From: Ignavibacteria bacterium
Lineage (GTDB): Bacteria; Elusimicrobiota; Endomicrobiia; PHAN01
Assembly: GCA_041694835.1 (NCBI GenBank)
Contig: JBGFRZ010000012.1
Location: 1 to 48,876 of the forward strand
Direction: 5' to 3'
DNA: 48,876 bases
Shown here one piece after another: positions 187 through 48,030 of this stretch. Made by a program: the position numbers and the translations under genes. Below the pieces are notes generated by a model. That model was given only the letters and a program-made list of their open reading frames with translations. It was not told where the DNA came from and did no database searches. How positions within the stretch are numbered: the stretch's first letter is position 1; the number at the start of each line of letters is the position of its first letter.

Positions 187-1350
187 TTAAAATTTTGTTT
201 CTTCGACTATCTTTATCGCCTTCCATAATTCTTTAATGCACACTTTCCTATTTAAGAACCTCATGCTTTCGGCTGGTGAGACGGCAACTCTCATAGCTTC
301 TTTTAATCCGTTGAAAGTCAAATTTTTCAAACCAAGGTGTCTTATGCTATAGGGAATGCGGCATCTCCTGTAAAACATGGAGAGTTCCCCGAAATCTTCG
401 TATTTATTTTCAAGCACCGACTGAACAAGTAAGCCCCATCCTACCCTGTGTCCATGAAGCGATTTTTTTGTAAAATCGTTAAAAGTCAGTCCGTTGGCGA
501 GGGCATGCGCTCCGACAGCTCGGCAGCCTTTCCCGCCGATACCACTCACCAGGCCGGTTAAAACGATGGCGGCATAGATTAATCTCTTAAATTCCTCGTT
601 TGGCTTTTTCAAGCGAATCGCCGAAAGCGCTGATTCGGAAAATTCAAAGATATCATCGCGTATGGCGCGGCTGAGCATAAACGCCGTCAAGACAAAACTA
701 CTTTCGGCGAACAAGGGGTGGGAGTTTATAAACGCGGCGGTCTCATAATACTTCGCAAGAGCATCGGTAATGCCGCTTGTAAAAAGTCTAACGGGTTGGT
801 TGAACAATATATCATAGTCGATTACGCAGACATCCGGTGCTTTTTTCAAATTGATTGTTTTGAACTTCCTTCCATCCTGATGATAAGTCGGAGAGATGGA
901 GGTAAAAGCGGCGCAGGTGGCTGACGATGTCGGAACTGTCATTAGTTTCGAACCTAATTTCTGCGCGACAATTTTCGATGTGTCTATGATTTTTCCGCCA
1001 CCAATTGCTACGATTGTTTCTGTATTTAATCCGCCCAACAGATTTGTAATTCTTGCCACCTCATCTAAACTACACTCGCCTCTGAAATATACAACTTTGG
1101 GTTTTAATTTATAAATTCCATCAAGATGATTTTTGAATTTTTCTTCTATCTTTCTTTCAACAATCAGCGCGGAACGTCTGTTGGTGAGTGATATTATCTT
1201 TTCATCGTTAAGAAGGGAGTTTCCCTCGAAAAGAAGGGATGGGGCTATGCGGTAGGCGTTTACCCTGTTAGAAATTTCAACTGGATTGCAGTATCCGCCG
1301 AAACTCCTGGTTTTCTTTCGAATAACCTTATAATTTCTGACGGGGTTCAA
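187..1350 (-). CDS. Glycerol dehydrogenase-like / iron-containing alcohol dehydrogenase family
   Basis: AIGGGKIIDTSK, VPTS, GITDALAK and HALANG/LHGHRVG metal-binding motifs. A TTG at 1350 overlaps the msbA stop. About the first 29 codons come from a palindromic insert. Confidence 0.8.
   Translation of the reverse strand: MNPVRNYKVIRKKTRSFGGYCNPVEISNRVNAYRIAPSLLFEGNSLLNDEKIISLTNRRSALIVERKIEEKFKNHLDGIYKLKPKVVYFRGECSLDEVARITNLLGGLNTETIVAIGGGKIIDTSKIVAQKLGSKLMTVPTSSATCAAFTSISPTYHQDGRKFKTINLKKAPDVCVIDYDILFNQPVRLFTSGITDALAKYYETAAFINSHPLFAESSFVLTAFMLSRAIRDDIFEFSESALSAIRLKKPNEEFKRLIYAAIVLTGLVSGIGGKGCRAVGAHALANGLTFNDFTKKSLHGHRVGWGLLVQSVLENKYEDFGELSMFYRRCRIPYSIRHLGLKNLTFNGLKEAMRVAVSPAESMRFLNRKVCIKELWKAIKIVEETKF
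1262..1346. repeat. CCCCG-family palindromic element (ACCCYGTYAGAAATT...AATTTCTRACRGGGT)
   Basis: 15-bp inverted repeat at 1262-1276 / 1332-1346 with two mismatches, both G.T on the + strand. Confidence 0.8.
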
Positions 1351-3068: not shown

Positions 3069-4262
3069 TTAACTAGTGCCAACTGTTTCCTTCATAATGT
3101 TTTCGGCCACCCTGATGGACGCGTCCGACGGATGAAGCATCTCGCGGATTCTCTTGAGCTTTTTTTTCACATCCCGCCGACCCGGGGGATTTTCGATGTA
3201 TCCGATGATTTTCTCGGATAGAATTTCAGGCGTGGAGTTTTCCTGCAGACATTCTGGAAAAACTTCATAATCAAGTAGAATGTTCGGAAGAGCCACATAT
3301 TTTGTCTTTATGAGTTTCTTCAATACCATGGCGTTCAGCCAGCCGATTTTATAGAAAATAACCGTCGGTATTTTGCATAGAGCCAGTTCCGTGGCAACCG
3401 TTCCCGAAACGCTCATAGCGATATCGATATCGGATTTTTTCATTGCGCCGTCATCTTCATAAACTATCCCTATTGAACTGCTGATACTCGTATATGCACG
3501 GTTGAGATTTTTCAAACCGAAAAGATGAAATGAAACTTTTTTATGCGGGAGTTTTCTTTTGATAATCTCCGCAACATCGTTGATTATCCCGATGTGCCTT
3601 TTTATAACGTGCGAGCGGCTGCCCGGGAAAAATCCGATTTTTACCGTATCGCCTTGCGGCGAATCTTCTTTTTCTTCAGCTATCTCAACCAAAGGATTCC
3701 CCACATAAATCGCTTTGATTTTTTCTTTTCTGTAAATCTCCTCTTCAAAAGGAAGTGTCAAAAAAACCTTATTGATGTATTTTTTTATATTTTCTATCCT
3801 GCCGTAACGGGATGCCCAAACCTGCGGCGGTATGTAGTAATAGACGGGAATGCTCAACTTGGAGGCGGCTTCAGCGATTTTTATGTTAAATCCGTAAAAA
3901 TCAACGAGGAGCGCTGCGGCGGGCTTTTGAGTGCGAAAATAATCTTTTACTTTTTTGAAAACACCATAAAGTCCCAAAACAGAAGCAAACGACAGCATAA
4001 AGCCGAAAGTTTCGAGCGAAACGGTATCGGCTATGAAATCTTCGGATACATCTTTCAGCTTTTCTCCACCGACCGAGGATATCGCAAAGCCGTGAATTTT
4101 TAGTTTTTCAGCAACCATGGCGGCGTGCAAATCACCTGATGGGTCCCCAGCCGAAATAAATATTTTTTTCGCCCTGTTAGAGATAGTTCCGATATATCGG
4201 GAGGTGTTATTTATAACCTTGCTTGATAAATTTTGTTCATATTGATTTATCATAACTATCAT
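3069..4262 (-). CDS. lpxB: Lipid-A-disaccharide synthase
   Basis: IFISAGDPSGDLH, PPQVWA, PFE, VGNPL, PGSR, SGT, LPNIL motifs. The first ~30 aa derive from an inserted element, so the start is uncertain. Confidence 0.92.
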   Translation of the reverse strand: MIVMINQYEQNLSSKVINNTSRYIGTISNRAKKIFISAGDPSGDLHAAMVAEKLKIHGFAISSVGGEKLKDVSEDFIADTVSLETFGFMLSFASVLGLYGVFKKVKDYFRTQKPAAALLVDFYGFNIKIAEAASKLSIPVYYYIPPQVWASRYGRIENIKKYINKVFLTLPFEEEIYRKEKIKAIYVGNPLVEIAEEKEDSPQGDTVKIGFFPGSRSHVIKRHIGIINDVAEIIKRKLPHKKVSFHLFGLKNLNRAYTSISSSIGIVYEDDGAMKKSDIDIAMSVSGTVATELALCKIPTVIFYKIGWLNAMVLKKLIKTKYVALPNILLDYEVFPECLQENSTPEILSEKIIGYIENPPGRRDVKKKLKRIREMLHPSDASIRVAENIMKETVGTS

Positions 4263-4476
4263 TTGTAAGATGAGCTCGTTGAAAAACCTTAATTTTTTGA
4301 ACGATTTGGCAGTTTCAAGTTAAAAGTTGAAATCGTTTAGACCGCAATGTCTGACGAGCAAAGCGAGGAGTTTTGCGGTCTGATTGAAACTTTTAACCGT
4401 TAAGAAACTGCCCTTTAAGTGAAAAAGATGGGTTTTTCAATAATCTCAAGATAACAAAATGTATCTCTAACGGGGT
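4171..4476. repeat. CCCCG-family palindromic element containing a nested MITE
   Basis: GCCCTGTTAGAGATA (4171-4185) pairs with TATCTCTAACGGGGT (4462-4476); same termini as 1262-1346. Confidence 0.8.
4272..4447. mobile_element. MITE-like foldback element with 5-bp target-site duplication
   Basis: Ends GAGnnnnTTGAAAAACC / GGTTTTTCAAnnnnCTC, three further nested stems, flanked by direct AAGAT at 4267-4271 and 4448-4452. Confidence 0.75.
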
Positions 4477-31534: not shown

Positions 31535-31845
31535 TGTAGCCGCATCGCTCTCCCTATCCACTGGAGTTTACCCCGTACTTTGATACGGGGCAAGGACAAG
31601 TTTCACGAGGACAGGCTTTGCGATGCTATTCCCCTCTAAAAAGAGGGGTTGGGGGTGTGTTGTCGCACAACAAGTTGGGTGCGGCTACAACCAAAAAATC
31701 GCTCATGCAAAAGAACAACTATTTGTGAGACGGAGCACTATACCGCACTGGATAAACTCCGAAAAAAAGTTCACAGAGTTGTTTCTCATCCTACCCCTTA
31801 ACTCCTGTTGTTCTCTGTGTCCATCTGTGTTTATCTGTGGTTCCA
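31535..31845. repeat. Nested REP-like palindromes
   Basis: TGTAGCCGCA...TGCGGCTACA (31535-31689) encloses CCCCGTA/TACGGGG and CCCCTCT/AGAGGGG hairpins; an ATCTGTGTTTATCTGTGGTT arm lies near 31824-31842. Confidence 0.65.
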
Positions 31846-45921: not shown

Positions 45922-46983
45922 CTATTTTTTCCTGGCAGGAGAACCCGCCGCTTTGCCAATCGTGGCAGTCATTGAGTTGTTATCGCGATTACTCCCGAAA
46001 AATTTATCTCTTACGGCCTTTTCTATCTCTTCGGCGACTTTTGGGTTTTCTTTGAGGTAATTTTTTGCATTATCCTTACCTTGTCCGAGCCTTGTATCGT
46101 TGTACATAAACCACGTGCCCGATTTTTCGACAAGGCCGCCTTCGACAGCGGCGTCGATTAAGCAACCCTCCTGGCTGACGCCTTCACCGTAGAGCATCTC
46201 AAACTCGGCTTGTCCGAACGGCGGCGATACCTTGTTTTTTACCACCTTAACCCGTATCTTGCTGCCTACCGCCTCGTCGCCTTTTTTAATAGTTTCCGTG
46301 CGCCTGATGTCAAGCCTCACGGATGCATAAAATTTCAACGCAAGGCCGCCTGTCGTGGTCTCGGGATTTCCCCACATAACGCCGATTTTTTGTCTTATCT
46401 GATTGATGAAAATTACGCTGGTCTTCGATTTGGAAATGACGGAAGTCAGTTTTCTAAGTGCCTGGCTCATAAGGCGGGCCTGCAGACCAACATGAGCGTC
46501 TCCCATCTCTCCATCTATCTCTGCTCTGGGGACTAGCGCGGCGACAGAGTCTATGACAACGACATCGACGGCTGCCGAACGAACCAGCTTTTCAGCTATC
46601 TCAAGAGCCTGCTCGCCGGAATCAGGTTGCGATATATAAAGGTTGTCTATGTCGACACCAAGCTTCTTTGCGTACTCGGGATCCATGGCGTGTTCGGCAT
46701 CGATGAACGCCGCGACGCCGCCCATTTTCTGAGCCTGTGCCACGATTAAAAGCGTCAGGGTGGTTTTACCGCTTGATTCCGGTCCGTAAATTTCTATCAC
46801 TCGACCGCGCGGAATCCCACCGATGCCTATGGCGATGTCGAGAGGTAATACCCCGGTAGGTATAGCTTCAACCTGAGTCTTCGCATGTTTTTCCCCGAGC
46901 CTCATGACGGCTTCCTTTCCGTGGTCTTTCTCTATCTGAGATATGGCAAGTTCAAGGGCCTTCATTCTCTCTGTGTTAGACAT
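45922..46983 (-). CDS. recA: Recombinase A
   Basis: [35 protein letters not shown] at 46983 follows GGAGG. Confidence 0.97.
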
Positions 46984-47008
46984 AAAATCCTCCATCCTGA
47001 AATTAACG

Positions 47009-47055
47009 GTTGAATTTCAACGCTTTCATTATATTAAAATTTCAAGCTTTATCAA
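47009..47055 (-). promoter_or_regulatory. Putative recA promoter with downstream palindrome
   Basis: TTGATA-N16-TATAAT (47055-47028) and GTTGAA-T-TTCAAC (47009-47021). Confidence 0.45.
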
Positions 47056-47140
47056 AATTTACAATGTAAAGCGACAAAAAGACATCGCCCGACAGATATA
47101 AAAATGAGACGACCGTTTTTACTTTAATCCTACTGCAACC

Positions 47141-47316
47141 AGCCGATGATGGGATTTGAACCCGCAGACTATCGCTTATTCACCCCGCACCATTTTCAGC
47201 CGAGAGCGAGATTTGAACTCGCGACCTATGGTTTACGAAACCATTGCTCTACCACTGAGCTATCCCGGCAAATGGTGCGGGGCAAGGCGATTACTCTGCC
47301 GTTGAGATGCCTCGGC
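47141..47316 (-). pseudogene. Interrupted, degenerate tRNA-Thr(UGU)
   Basis: The 5' half (47283-47316) and 3' half (47141-47178) rejoin into a cloverleaf with ATCGC-CTTGTAA-GCGAT; mismatches in the acceptor, D and T stems. Confidence 0.75.
47198..47269 (-). tRNA. tRNA-Thr(CGU)
   Basis: GCCGGGA/TCTCGGC acceptor, ATGGT-TTCGTAA-ACCAT anticodon arm, canonical D and T arms. Confidence 0.95.
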
Positions 47317-47317
47317 G

Positions 47318-47518
47318 AATAAAAATGCCGCAGGAAAATCTGCCTGTCGCACAAGTTAGGTGTCGACGCAGCATTTTAATAAAAAATGCCGCAGGAAAAT
47401 CTGCCTGTCGCACAAGTTAAGTGTCGACGCGACATTTTAATAAAAAATGCCGCAGGAAAATCTGCCTGTCGCACAAGTTAAGTGTCGACGCAGCATTTTA
47501 ATAAAAAATGCCGCAGGA
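47318..47518. repeat. 61-bp tandem repeats carrying the tRNA-Phe 3' end
   Basis: TGCCGCAGGA recurs at 47326, 47387, 47448 and 47509; the units are near-identical. Confidence 0.9.
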
Positions 47519-47581
47519 CGGAATCGAACCGTCGACACTCGGTTTTTCAGACCGATGCTCTACCGACTGAGCTACCGCGGC
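47509..47581 (-). tRNA. tRNA-Phe(GAA)
   Basis: GCCGCGG/CTGCGGC-A acceptor, TCGGT-CTGAAAA-ACCGA anticodon arm, TTCGATT loop. Confidence 0.95.
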
Positions 47582-47641
47582 ATTACTTCTATTTCAAACA
47601 AACTTGAATATTCTTTACCTGAATTTAACACGCAGTAAAAA

Positions 47642-47765
47642 TCAGTCGGTAGAGCGAGCTCTTCCGGGGCGCTCACTAACTCGCGCCCTTCGCCAAACTC
47701 GTTGCGACTTATTCGTCGCAACGGCGAACCAACTGAGCTACCGCGGCATTCGGTATTTCAAACAA
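47642..47765 (-). pseudogene. Fragmented duplicate of the tRNA-Phe 5' end with inserted hairpins
   Basis: GCCGCGGTAGCTCAGT plus leader at 47729-47765 duplicates 47566-47600; inverted D-arm piece at 47642-47655. Confidence 0.6.
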
Positions 47766-47781
47766 TTTTTGGGGGAGGGGA

Positions 47782-48030
47782 TTATTTTTTTTCGTATGCC
47801 TTCTTTCCCGCTGTCACCGCCGACTCTATCCTATCCTTCTCGTCGCACGCTTTTTCTTTAATATCCGAGACGAATTCATCGACGCTCTCTCTTAAATCGT
47901 CGGCTACGTCCTTGAGCTTTTTTCTCGTCTCTTTACCGGAGGAGGGGGCGTACAAAACCCCTATGGCCGCGCCGATAATACCGCCGAGTAAAAAAGCAAG
48001 GATGGTCTCCCCTGAAGATCTTTCAGACAT
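47782..48030 (-). CDS. YtxH-domain protein
   Basis: FLLGGIIGAAIGVLYAPSSGKETRKKL; ATG at 48030 follows GGAGG. Confidence 0.88.
   Translation of the reverse strand: MSERSSGETILAFLLGGIIGAAIGVLYAPSSGKETRKKLKDVADDLRESVDEFVSDIKEKACDEKDRIESAVTAGKKAYEKK

Follow-up and report, generated by a model that had tools for sequence, protein, structure and literature searches.

A palindrome-bounded tRNA-Thr(CGU) gene between the halves of a damaged tRNA-Thr gene in an Elusimicrobiota genome

How does a complete tRNA gene come to lie within another tRNA gene? The question is raised by positions 47141-47316 of contig C55 from an Elusimicrobiota genome (here G000; 1.9 Mb in 89 contigs, 97% complete, with 38 tRNAs and a tmRNA). 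The contig was analysed over its whole length of 48,876 nucleotides, called the window below. From its letters alone it had been predicted that a palindrome-bounded tRNA-Thr(CGU) interrupts the anticodon loop of a tRNA-Thr(UGU), either as an element that captured a tRNA and inserted into an isoacceptor gene or as the relic of an intron-like arrangement.

An intact tRNA-Thr between the halves of a damaged one

When run on the window, ARAGORN called a tRNA-Thr(cgt) on the minus strand at the center of the locus, and the Rfam tRNA model matched it over its full length (74.4 bits, E 7e-16). A repeat search placed arms of 13 nt on either side of it, 100% complementary and separated by 74 nt (coordinates in Table 1). 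Thus, the predicted enclosure of an intact tRNA-Thr(CGU) by a tight, perfect 13-bp inverted repeat was borne out. The 5' arm runs right up to base 1 of the inner gene, and the 3' arm starts 2 bases past the discriminator; the insert measures 100 bp, is made up of the two perfect arms around a tRNA gene of 72 nt and has no space for an ORF. The two arms are the only exact copies of the 13-mer in the window, in which matches with up to 3 mismatches number 14 against 12.9 expected. Beyond the arms, 34 and 38 bases correspond to the 5' and 3' halves of another tRNA, and these halves flank the inner gene at 0-17 nt. Apart from the inner gene, no Thr(CGU) gene was found in the assembly. Upstream lies a tRNA-Phe(gaa), also full length (73.9 bits). 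The locus contains other tRNA-Phe fragments as well, together with three 61-bp repeats, each of which ends in a tRNA-Phe 3' end.

To characterize the outer gene, the insert was removed in silico, the halves were rejoined at 81 boundary variants and ARAGORN was run on the products. None of the 81 was called at the default threshold, and 6 were called at 95% of it. As a control, lowering the threshold to 95% added 2 ARAGORN calls across the 1.9-Mb genome (from 38 to 40), and rejoined shuffled halves were called in 0 of 500 cases at 95, 90 or 85%. The rejoined halves therefore score better than random, and these figures together establish that the outer sequence is a real, damaged tRNA gene, far above chance. 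Damage is visible as one mismatch each in the acceptor, D and T stems, and the 3' half of the outer gene shows 72% identity to the corresponding stretch of the inner one. In intron mode, ARAGORN reported the inner genes alone from the natural sequence. The arms, the ARAGORN and Rfam calls and the rejoined halves thus uphold the central claim, namely that a palindrome-bounded element with an apparently functional tRNA sits inside another tRNA-Thr gene.

The identity of the outer gene is less certain. It had been claimed that deletion of 47179-47282 gives a tRNA-Thr(UGU) cloverleaf. With these boundaries a tRNA-Thr(tgt) cloverleaf was indeed obtained, only at 95% of the default threshold, and the anticodon changed with the position of the cut (at 95%, Ala, Thr or Ile), so that the claim stands at the relaxed threshold and not at the default. 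A clean join at the same boundaries reproduces the exact anticodon arm of the Thr(UGU) genes of other Elusimicrobiota lineages. Away from the junction, by contrast, 68 outer bases agree with Thr(CGU) genes of those lineages at 60 positions and with their Thr(UGU) genes at 56, in a comparison set that was retrieved with a word from the outer gene and is hence biased toward similarity. Moreover, the outer anticodon equals the inner one in 8/8 other nests where it could be read (by eye). Given this agreement, a Thr(CGU) origin appears favored for the outer gene of the window, and its assignment as an isoacceptor, Thr(UGU), is best graded uncertain. An intact tRNA-Thr(tgt) gene was in any case present elsewhere in the genome (ARAGORN; G000:C49 c3856-3927), as the original prediction had proposed to check.

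For the transcript from 47322 to 47135, folding (-80 kcal/mol, z -6.2) predicts that the inner cloverleaf forms, that the paired arms stack on its acceptor stem and that this helix runs on into the anticodon stem of the outer gene; a transcript folded in this way could plausibly be a substrate for RNase III and RNase P. A promoter search, weak evidence in itself, showed no promoter-like site in or just before the cassette and only one in 46950-47900, which precedes recA. As for expression, no public run covered more than 0.06 of the words sampled from 46700-47800, and none of the runs listed was of RNA.

Table 1. Features of the nested tRNA-Thr locus (window coordinates) and the other nests of the same genome (contigs)
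Feature	Position	Strand	Description
Outer dead tRNA-Thr, 5' half	47283..47316	-	acceptor strand, D arm, 5' anticodon-stem strand
Junction bases CTTG, end of outer 5' half	47286-47283	-	from sequence
Inverted-repeat arm, directly before base 1 of inner tRNA	47270..47282		reads CCCCGCACCATTT on the tRNA-sense (minus) strand
Inner intact tRNA-Thr(CGU)	47198..47269	-	ARAGORN; Rfam RF00005
2-base spacer GA (sense strand)	47196-47197		between inner tRNA and second arm
Second inverted-repeat arm	47183-47195		reads AAATGGTGCGGGG on the tRNA-sense strand
Junction 4-mer TGAA (sense)	47179..47182	-	in place of the first four anticodon-loop bases
Outer dead tRNA-Thr, 3' half	47141..47178	-	last 3 loop bases, 3' anticodon stem, variable loop, T arm, acceptor strand, discriminator
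tRNA-Phe(GAA), upstream context	47508..47582	-	ARAGORN, Rfam
tRNA-Met(cat) inside Met relic	C28		broken at the start of the anticodon loop, like Thr
tRNA-Pro(tgg) inside Pro relic	C11		
Complete 5S rRNA inside second 5S copy	C31		

Relatives of the nested element

Three further nests with the same CCCCGCACC/GGTGCGGGG termini were present in G000, holding a tRNA-Met, a tRNA-Pro and a 5S rRNA. Two of them, on C28 (Met) and C11 (Pro), are what the suggested search for other CCCCG...CGGGG pairs enclosing tRNAs recovered in this genome. With Rfam, the three inner genes scored 88.1 (the 5S), 71.6 and 69.1 bits. Only the three nested tRNAs (of 38) and the nested 5S have the arms; no other tRNA in the genome has them. 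In helices I, II and III, the outer 5S departs from the inner one through compensatory changes, indicating that the outer copy was formerly a working gene. The two copies have an identical 39-nt block in common, and both carry a hairpin specific to this lineage.

The pattern CCCCGCACC-N76-106-GGTGCGGGG occurred in 8 of 401 Elusimicrobiota genomes and in none when a reversed control was used. All six of the tRNA-carrying cassettes examined in those genomes were nested in co-oriented halves of the matching tRNA (Glu in G002, Val in G046, Pro twice in G050, Thr and Lys in G069). A scan of species genomes with the bare pattern was swamped by chance pairs in GC-rich genomes, whose arms are exactly 9 bp; elements with arms of 11-23 bp were obtained from Planctomycetota, Omnitrophota, Thermodesulfovibrionales, Spirochaetota and Patescibacteria, and the tRNA-bearing ones were nested in 5/5 cases examined, at least 4 of them from Patescibacteria. 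Overall, each of the 14 tRNA nests checked by hand in Elusimicrobiota and Patescibacteria lay in co-oriented relics of the matching tRNA. When a T-loop word was added to the pattern, at least 117 further stretches were found in species genomes, mostly from Patescibacteria, also from Elusimicrobia, Omnitrophica and a few others. Among the matches listed, ARAGORN detected a tRNA in 109/118 cassettes, with 36 anticodon types, and the flank aligned co-oriented to the inner tRNA in 83/107 scorable cassettes as compared with 4/107 for an antisense control (67 versus 0 with a stricter score); the remaining 24/107 had no flank similarity at the score used. These tRNAs, together with the Met, Pro and 5S nests of G000, agree with the original prediction that the family can enclose cargo that is functional, to judge from its sequence. 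A larger arm pair in L133 consists of two distinct elements, located around the genes of ribosomal proteins L18 and S5.

The same termini also bound elements of about 100 bp with unrelated cargo, both here and in several other phyla. G000 has elements of about 104 bp with these termini, a three-hairpin interior and TTTA or TAAA on both sides; Rfam returned no family for the 104-bp cloverleaf-shaped element copies. Across phyla, the non-tRNA members have direct 4-bp flanks reading TTGA, TGAA, TTTA, TAAA or TCAA. Common termini, unrelated cargo and direct flanks are together the signature of a mobile family. Past the conserved 9 bp the arms vary among copies, yet they remain complementary over 11-23 bp; since complementarity is kept while the sequence differs, the pairing itself matters, and this points to a hairpin, in single-stranded DNA or RNA, as the probable working form. 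A link of the arms to CRISPR type I-E repeats, a tRNA 3' end or a primer-binding site was considered and set aside. We tried and rejected the notion that the non-tRNA cargo is decayed tRNA: at an 80% threshold 9 of 62 cassettes were called versus 1.6 for shuffled cargo, and 6 of the 9 were intact tRNAs.

In addition, G000 has a short hairpin repeat, CCCCGCAC, and a large sister family with CCCCGTTAGAAAT arms, 29-345 bp in length and often with identical 4-bp flanks. The sites near 1262, 4171 and 31571 of the window, which had been taken to match the cassette termini, are real palindromic elements whose arms read CCCTGTTAGA... and CCCCGTAC...; the match extends to the first 4-5 bases (CCCCG; CCCTG at 1262 and 4171) and to the kind of flanking 4-mer, whereas the rest differs, and they represent the sister family.

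Cassettes were found in anticodon loops, T loops and D loops. No direct repeat was present at the junctions in any of 14 nests; the window copy, for instance, has CTTG on one side and TGAA on the other. The 3' TGAA recurs at four other nests (G069 Thr, G069 Lys, L123 and L201). In the window copy, which lies in an anticodon loop, and in the T-loop nests G069 Lys, L123 and L201, the order is the same: a stem strand of 5 bp is followed by 4 bases and the cassette, and after the cassette come TGAA, the final 3 bases of the loop and the other stem strand. Natively, TTCG would be expected at this place in these four nests; their 5' junction 4-mers are CTTG, TTTA, CCCG and CCTG, for the most part CTTG or CYYG. 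The lengths of the junctions fit a 4-bp duplication and their sequences do not. Target duplication, inverted duplication and stem extension were each considered for the junction 4-mers, and none accounts for them. In the remaining nests, either the 3' junction is clean or 10-21 bases are missing, and some outer copies have lost the acceptor strand.

The resident copy and the search for an enzyme

We asked which of the two genes in a nest belongs to the lineage. Paired Phe and Thr tRNA matches 10-200 nt apart were found in at least 14 of 40 relatives (by our own reading), and the nested Thr of G069 shows the same Phe-Thr order. Since this tandem is found in many relatives, the outer relic occupies the resident Thr position. 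The Thr(CGU) type to which the outer gene matches at 60/68 bases is common in other classes of the phylum; its agreement with the inner gene is 51/68 and that with the gene of same-family relatives 49-50/68. A word spanning the D arm and anticodon stem of the outer Thr was present in 84 of 401 genomes, in 0/2 of the same family and in 0/89 of the largest family in the same class. For Pro, the outer 3' half agrees at 28/33 bases with the tRNA-Pro(tgg) of a same-family relative, including a compensatory T-stem change, versus 53/75 for the inner gene. For Met, the outer copy retains the T loop and acceptor bases of relatives, where the inner copy differs by a compensatory pair; overall, both copies are about equally close to the relatives. 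The two Met copies are identical centrally, over 30/30 and 29/31 bases next to the cassette, and differ distally, a distribution that suggests later conversion of the central bases. In all three tRNA nests of G000, the outer gene thus fits the resident lineage better and the inner one is a different allele, most clearly for Pro.

Comparison of the locus in relatives, as had been suggested, showed that the same-family genomes G001 and G002 have an un-nested Thr(CGU) without arms in a rearranged neighborhood. An empty-site allele of this locus was not found in a search of metagenome contigs via RecA, in which the best RecA match was 76% identical and no close relative turned up; 80 metagenome RecA loci contained 0 tRNAs according to ARAGORN.

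Candidate enzymes that might mobilize the cassette were sought around the nests and across the genomes. No homing-endonuclease family was found among 26 ORFs within about 1.5 kb of 8 nests, where the only recombination genes, encoding a large serine recombinase and a PD-(D/E)XK protein, lie beside the C11 nest. Among the 8 ORFs scanned at 44.5-48.9 kb of the window there was no integrase or recombinase. In five cassette-bearing genomes, nothing exceeded the cut-off of the DDE_Tnp_1 (PF01609) and IS1380 (NF033539) models; PF01609 gave one match below the cut-off, on C46, outside the element end and without a convincing ORF, and NF033539 gave none. A parent IS with the same ends was not seen in G000 either, where long-range CCCCG-arm pairs enclose ordinary-looking ORFs (judged by eye).

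Y1_Tnp genes were present in four of the five cassette-bearing genomes. The sole one of G000 (C41:8754-9467) is bracketed by a different repeat, and no CCCCGCACC arms surround the Y1_Tnp loci examined in G000, G002, G046 and G069. A Zixibacteria chromosome contains a 624-bp unit in which arms of 13-15 bp containing CCCCGCACC hold a 183-aa Y1_Tnp gene (L177 6371-6919). We take a Y1_Tnp gene bracketed by inverted repeats to be the REP-RAYT layout. Among homologues of the Zixibacteria gene, 56/80 are bracketed by lineage-specific inverted repeats of at least 11 bp, and CCCCG-type arms occur at 2/80 loci, the query itself and one homologue of 81% identity. The link to REP-RAYT systems may therefore be regarded as a lead and not as a finding.

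How the nests may have arisen

The reading that we consider probable, with real reservations, is that the cassette is a non-autonomous, hairpin-ended element, similar to REPINs or MITEs, which breaks a small-RNA gene and supplies a replacement. The mobile unit would be 47183-47282, perhaps with the two flanking 4-mers, and its hairpin-forming CCCCGCACC...GGTGCGGGG ends would wrap a complete tRNA-Thr(CGU) gene tightly. It would have inserted into the anticodon loop of a formerly working tRNA-Thr downstream of tRNA-Phe, leaving the old Thr gene split and decaying. As the cassette has no promoter-like site, it would presumably be transcribed by read-through from the promoter of the old gene, which would explain the constant co-orientation of inner and outer genes. 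The arms would pair in the transcript and lengthen the inner acceptor stem into a long helix; to free the inner tRNA from it would take RNase P, trimming of the 3' end and possibly RNase III. The net effect would be replacement of the resident small-RNA gene by the incoming allele, with the cell made dependent on the cassette by the breakage of its old copy. We infer mobility itself, the processing route and the dependence on the cassette from these data, and likewise the enzyme, for which the best lead would be a RAYT-like HUH Y1 transposase acting on single-stranded hairpins. A simple transposition model is not matched by the nests, since they do not have the direct 4-bp flanks of the non-tRNA members and their junction 4-mers differ from the native loop bases. 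For the window copy the argument for dependence is also weaker, given that Thr(CGU) may be non-essential in the presence of tRNA-Thr(UGU).

Homing would explain the choice of target in another way. A trans-acting, site-specific endonuclease would cut the intact target tRNA gene and the break would be repaired from a transferred cassette allele; with the outer halves serving as homology arms, only the matching gene would be hit. This is consistent with the lack of target-site duplications at the nests and with the anticodon match in 8/8 readable nests, and both the identity of the Met copies next to the cassette (30/30, 29/31), with differences distally, and the 39-nt block of the 5S copies resemble co-conversion. 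We nevertheless consider homing improbable: no homing-endonuclease family is represented among the 26 ORFs near the 8 nests, RecA-type repair would have to work with short homology arms of about 35 nt, the first nest would need another origin, and the presence of the same termini on non-tRNA elements with direct 4-bp flanks would be left unexplained. Some of these observations bear on duplication in place, whereby a palindrome in the anticodon loop would provoke template switching and copy the gene into itself, making inner and outer genes paralogues. The central identity of the Met copies and the lineage-specific hairpin of both 5S copies would be expected from such an event. However, the Pro copies are of different lineages (53/75 versus 28/33 to the relative), the Thr copies agree at only 51/68 bases and the same 9-bp termini recur across phyla, which leaves this explanation a very small chance.

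It is also doubtful, to a marked degree, that there is no cassette at all and that the inverted repeat natively serves the inner tRNA as a stem for its processing, the half-tRNAs being scars of unrelated integrase events at a tRNA hot spot. tRNA genes are known as integration sites, tRNA-Phe fragments and the three 61-bp repeats are found at this locus and a serine recombinase adjoins the C11 nest; yet integrase scars duplicate one end of a tRNA and do not leave both halves around an intact gene, no integrase was found at 44.5-48.9 kb, and the arms, besides being confined to three nested tRNAs of 38 and the nested 5S, are the termini of dispersed elements with other cargo. A nested gene that is functional as a whole seems highly unlikely. 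Here, the insert would be removed from the RNA by cleavage in the long helix and RtcB would rejoin the ends, so that both tRNAs are made. The fold does set the insert on a long helix closing the outer anticodon stem, the genome encodes RtcB and compensatory changes kept helices I-III of the outer 5S. But the outer Thr falls below the ARAGORN threshold and has acceptor- and T-stem mismatches, other outer copies are missing 10-21 bases or the acceptor strand, and RtcB is common in bacteria, as a control search showed, while the tRNA-splicing endonuclease (PF01974) is absent from this 97% complete genome. No intron family was among the 12 Rfam matches at E up to 10. The decay of the outer gene, the deletions in other outer copies and the lack of a splicing-endonuclease family or intron-family match speak against the relic intron-like arrangement that had been offered as an alternative. 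Finally, an assembly artefact of the metagenome bin is hardly credible. The assembly has 89 contigs and no public run with the stretch was found, but at about 72-75% identity the inner and outer genes differ too much for mis-joining to be expected, and the same design is found in independent assemblies from many studies.

The hairpin-ended cassette that we favor can be set beside several known systems. REPs and REPINs are inverted-arm doublets of about 100 nt that form a long hairpin, exist in many dispersed copies and are associated with RAYT (HUH Y1) transposases. The cassette resembles them in having two arms and a spacer that fold as a long hairpin, many dispersed copies and pairing conserved despite drift, and in the location of a Y1_Tnp gene inside the same arms, the latter in one Zixibacteria chromosome and one homologue only. 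HUH transposition makes no 4-bp direct flanks, however, whereas the non-tRNA members of the cassette family have them; no cognate RAYT was found in G000 or the other Elusimicrobiota examined; and we know of no REPINs that carry functional RNA genes or split genes. MITEs and mobile insertion cassettes are bounded by inverted repeats and have no transposase, and some carry passenger genes. Like them, the element is small, ends in inverted repeats, lacks a transposase and varies in its cargo, and its non-tRNA members have direct 4-bp flanks. It differs from these in that no autonomous IS with such ends was found, in that the nested copies are without target-site duplication and in its passenger, a tRNA or 5S that matches the gene hit. 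Archaeal tRNA introns can contain a functional small RNA, and group I introns occur in bacterial anticodon loops. An anticodon-loop insert containing what may be a functional RNA recalls these introns, but here there is no splicing endonuclease and no match to an intron model, the insert could not accommodate a group I core, the outer gene has decayed and T- and D-loop sites are used too. An integrase-borne island at a tRNA gene would have an adjoining integrase, which was not found here among the 8 ORFs scanned, and would repeat one end of the tRNA directly at its far junction; here both halves of the old gene flank the new one.

Insertions in the rRNA genes of CPR bacteria resemble introns or code for homing endonucleases, and they leave the host RNA functional (Tsurumaki et al. 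2024, PMC11270868). Like these and the rRNA intervening sequences, the cassette appears as extra DNA with a long stem in a loop of a structural RNA, in similar uncultured bacteria; it differs by bringing a whole second RNA gene while the host copy decays. In tRNA-dependent lysogeny, a phage inserts itself into a tRNA gene that its host needs and does not restore that gene (Guerrero-Bustamante and Hatfull 2024, PMC10865867). This is the closest functional analogue; in both cases an element disrupts the host tRNA and brings a cognate tRNA. There, the element is an entire temperate phage, equipped with a tyrosine integrase and an attP/attB core (PMC10865867); the cassette is about 100 bp, has no protein gene, ends in hairpins, is nested exactly in the broken gene and also occurs with 5S rRNA. 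Our literature search, at the level of listings and abstracts, returned no description of a bacterial tRNA gene nested in a tRNA gene, and no papers on MITEs or mobile cassettes with tRNA passengers. New here are the Elusimicrobiota cases, the 9-bp terminus common to several phyla and the tie to dispersed non-tRNA members, and also the evidence on the resident copy, the co-orientation and anticodon counts and the Y1_Tnp lead.

A wider proposal, which we put forward tentatively and with slightly more doubt than belief, is that a single family of cassettes of about 100 bp, with 9-bp termini kept in Elusimicrobiota, many Patescibacteria lineages and some other uncultured bacteria, may be a dedicated vehicle by which essential small-RNA genes (5S, and tRNAs of at least 36 anticodon types) are replaced horizontally, entering exposed 7-base hairpin loops of the matching gene, killing it and making the cell dependent. 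The match of cargo to target and the conserved termini raise the question of an enzyme that reads CCCCGCACC hairpins and of the way in which the cognate loop is found. In practice, nested cassettes cause annotation errors, such as pseudo-tRNAs and false 'introns', in small-genome uncultured bacteria. tRNA and 5S rRNA genes are usually regarded as stable, vertically inherited core genes. If the proposal is true, a protein-less element that splits such genes would constitute a new route for horizontal replacement of translation components, a selfish 'gene-for-gene swap' that would account for tRNA alleles moving between distant lineages. It would also be a new form of addictive selfish DNA and, among the analogues of tRNA-dependent lysogeny, the smallest known.

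The 5S rRNA nest and elements without a tRNA

The arrangement of a complete gene inside a second copy was also seen in an rRNA operon of the genome of the window (G000), where one 5S rRNA lies within another. One arm of this nest carries a single mismatch, and helices I-III of the outer copy are preserved through compensatory changes. Two kinds of dispersed element without a tRNA were found as well. In the element of about 104 bp, three interior hairpins are closed by a terminal stem, giving a cloverleaf-like shape; its flanks are TTTA or TAAA, and no family in Rfam matched it. The sister family of palindromic elements occupies at least 40 sites across the genome, with lengths of 29-345 bp and 4-bp flanks that are often identical, and some of its copies sit within a larger composite repeat.

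Locations of the 5S rRNA nest, the dispersed elements and two ORFs beside nests (Cn, contigs of G000; Lnnn, extracted loci)
Feature	Location	Remarks
Complete 5S rRNA within second 5S rRNA gene	G000:C31:14162-14341 (L022)	rRNA operon; termini as in the tRNA nests
~104-bp element	G000:C42:145-248, C54:15003-15106, C81:12058-12162, C80:27913-28018, C84:2363-2466	CCCCGCACC termini
Sister family, palindromic	window 1262-1344, 4172-4475, 31571-31594 and others	CCCCGTTAGAAAT-type arms
Large serine recombinase ORF, 461 aa	G000:C11:890-2272 (L036 109-1491)	truncated Resolvase N-domain match
PP-loop ATP_bind_3 protein ORF	G000:C28 (L041 515-1483)	adjoins nested tRNA(cat)

Partial tRNA copies and bare hairpins

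Immediately downstream of the intact tRNA-Phe of the window, a 61-bp unit is repeated three times in tandem (47321-47518), each unit finishing with the final ~10 bases of the tRNA-Phe gene and its T-rich tail. To judge by their sequence, the three units resemble stacked 3' relics of former Phe genes. About 164 bp upstream of the same tRNA, within 47640-47760, its upstream region and first 20 bases occur a second time. Behind this copy come an insert of unrelated sequence, rich in hairpins, and the Phe D arm in antisense orientation. This Phe-derived structure is without CCCCG arms and, as read from the sequence, looks like a replacement scar with a different type of junction.

In both same-family relatives (L029, G001:C19; L031, G002:C189), the first ~12 bases of tRNA-Thr(cgt) and its leader are duplicated just upstream of that gene, and the duplicate pairs with an intervening complementary stretch to form a hairpin. 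Two nests from the species-genome scan (L212 4400-4590; L201 2950-3020, Doudnabacteria by record title) have, besides the tRNA cassette, a bare 30-bp hairpin in another part of the same outer relic, with arms CCCCGCAC or CCCCGTCC.

Genes next to the nested tRNA-Pro and tRNA(cat)

About 10 bp lie between the end of the serine recombinase ORF and the cassette with the nested tRNA-Pro, and the ORF runs over the 3' relic of the outer gene; on the opposite side, ~1 kb away, lies a gene of the PD-(D/E)XK nuclease family. The ATP_bind_3 family includes the lysidine synthase TilS. Since the ORF next to the nested 'Met' tRNA(cat) belongs to this family, that tRNA could be a lysidine-modified tRNA-Ile.
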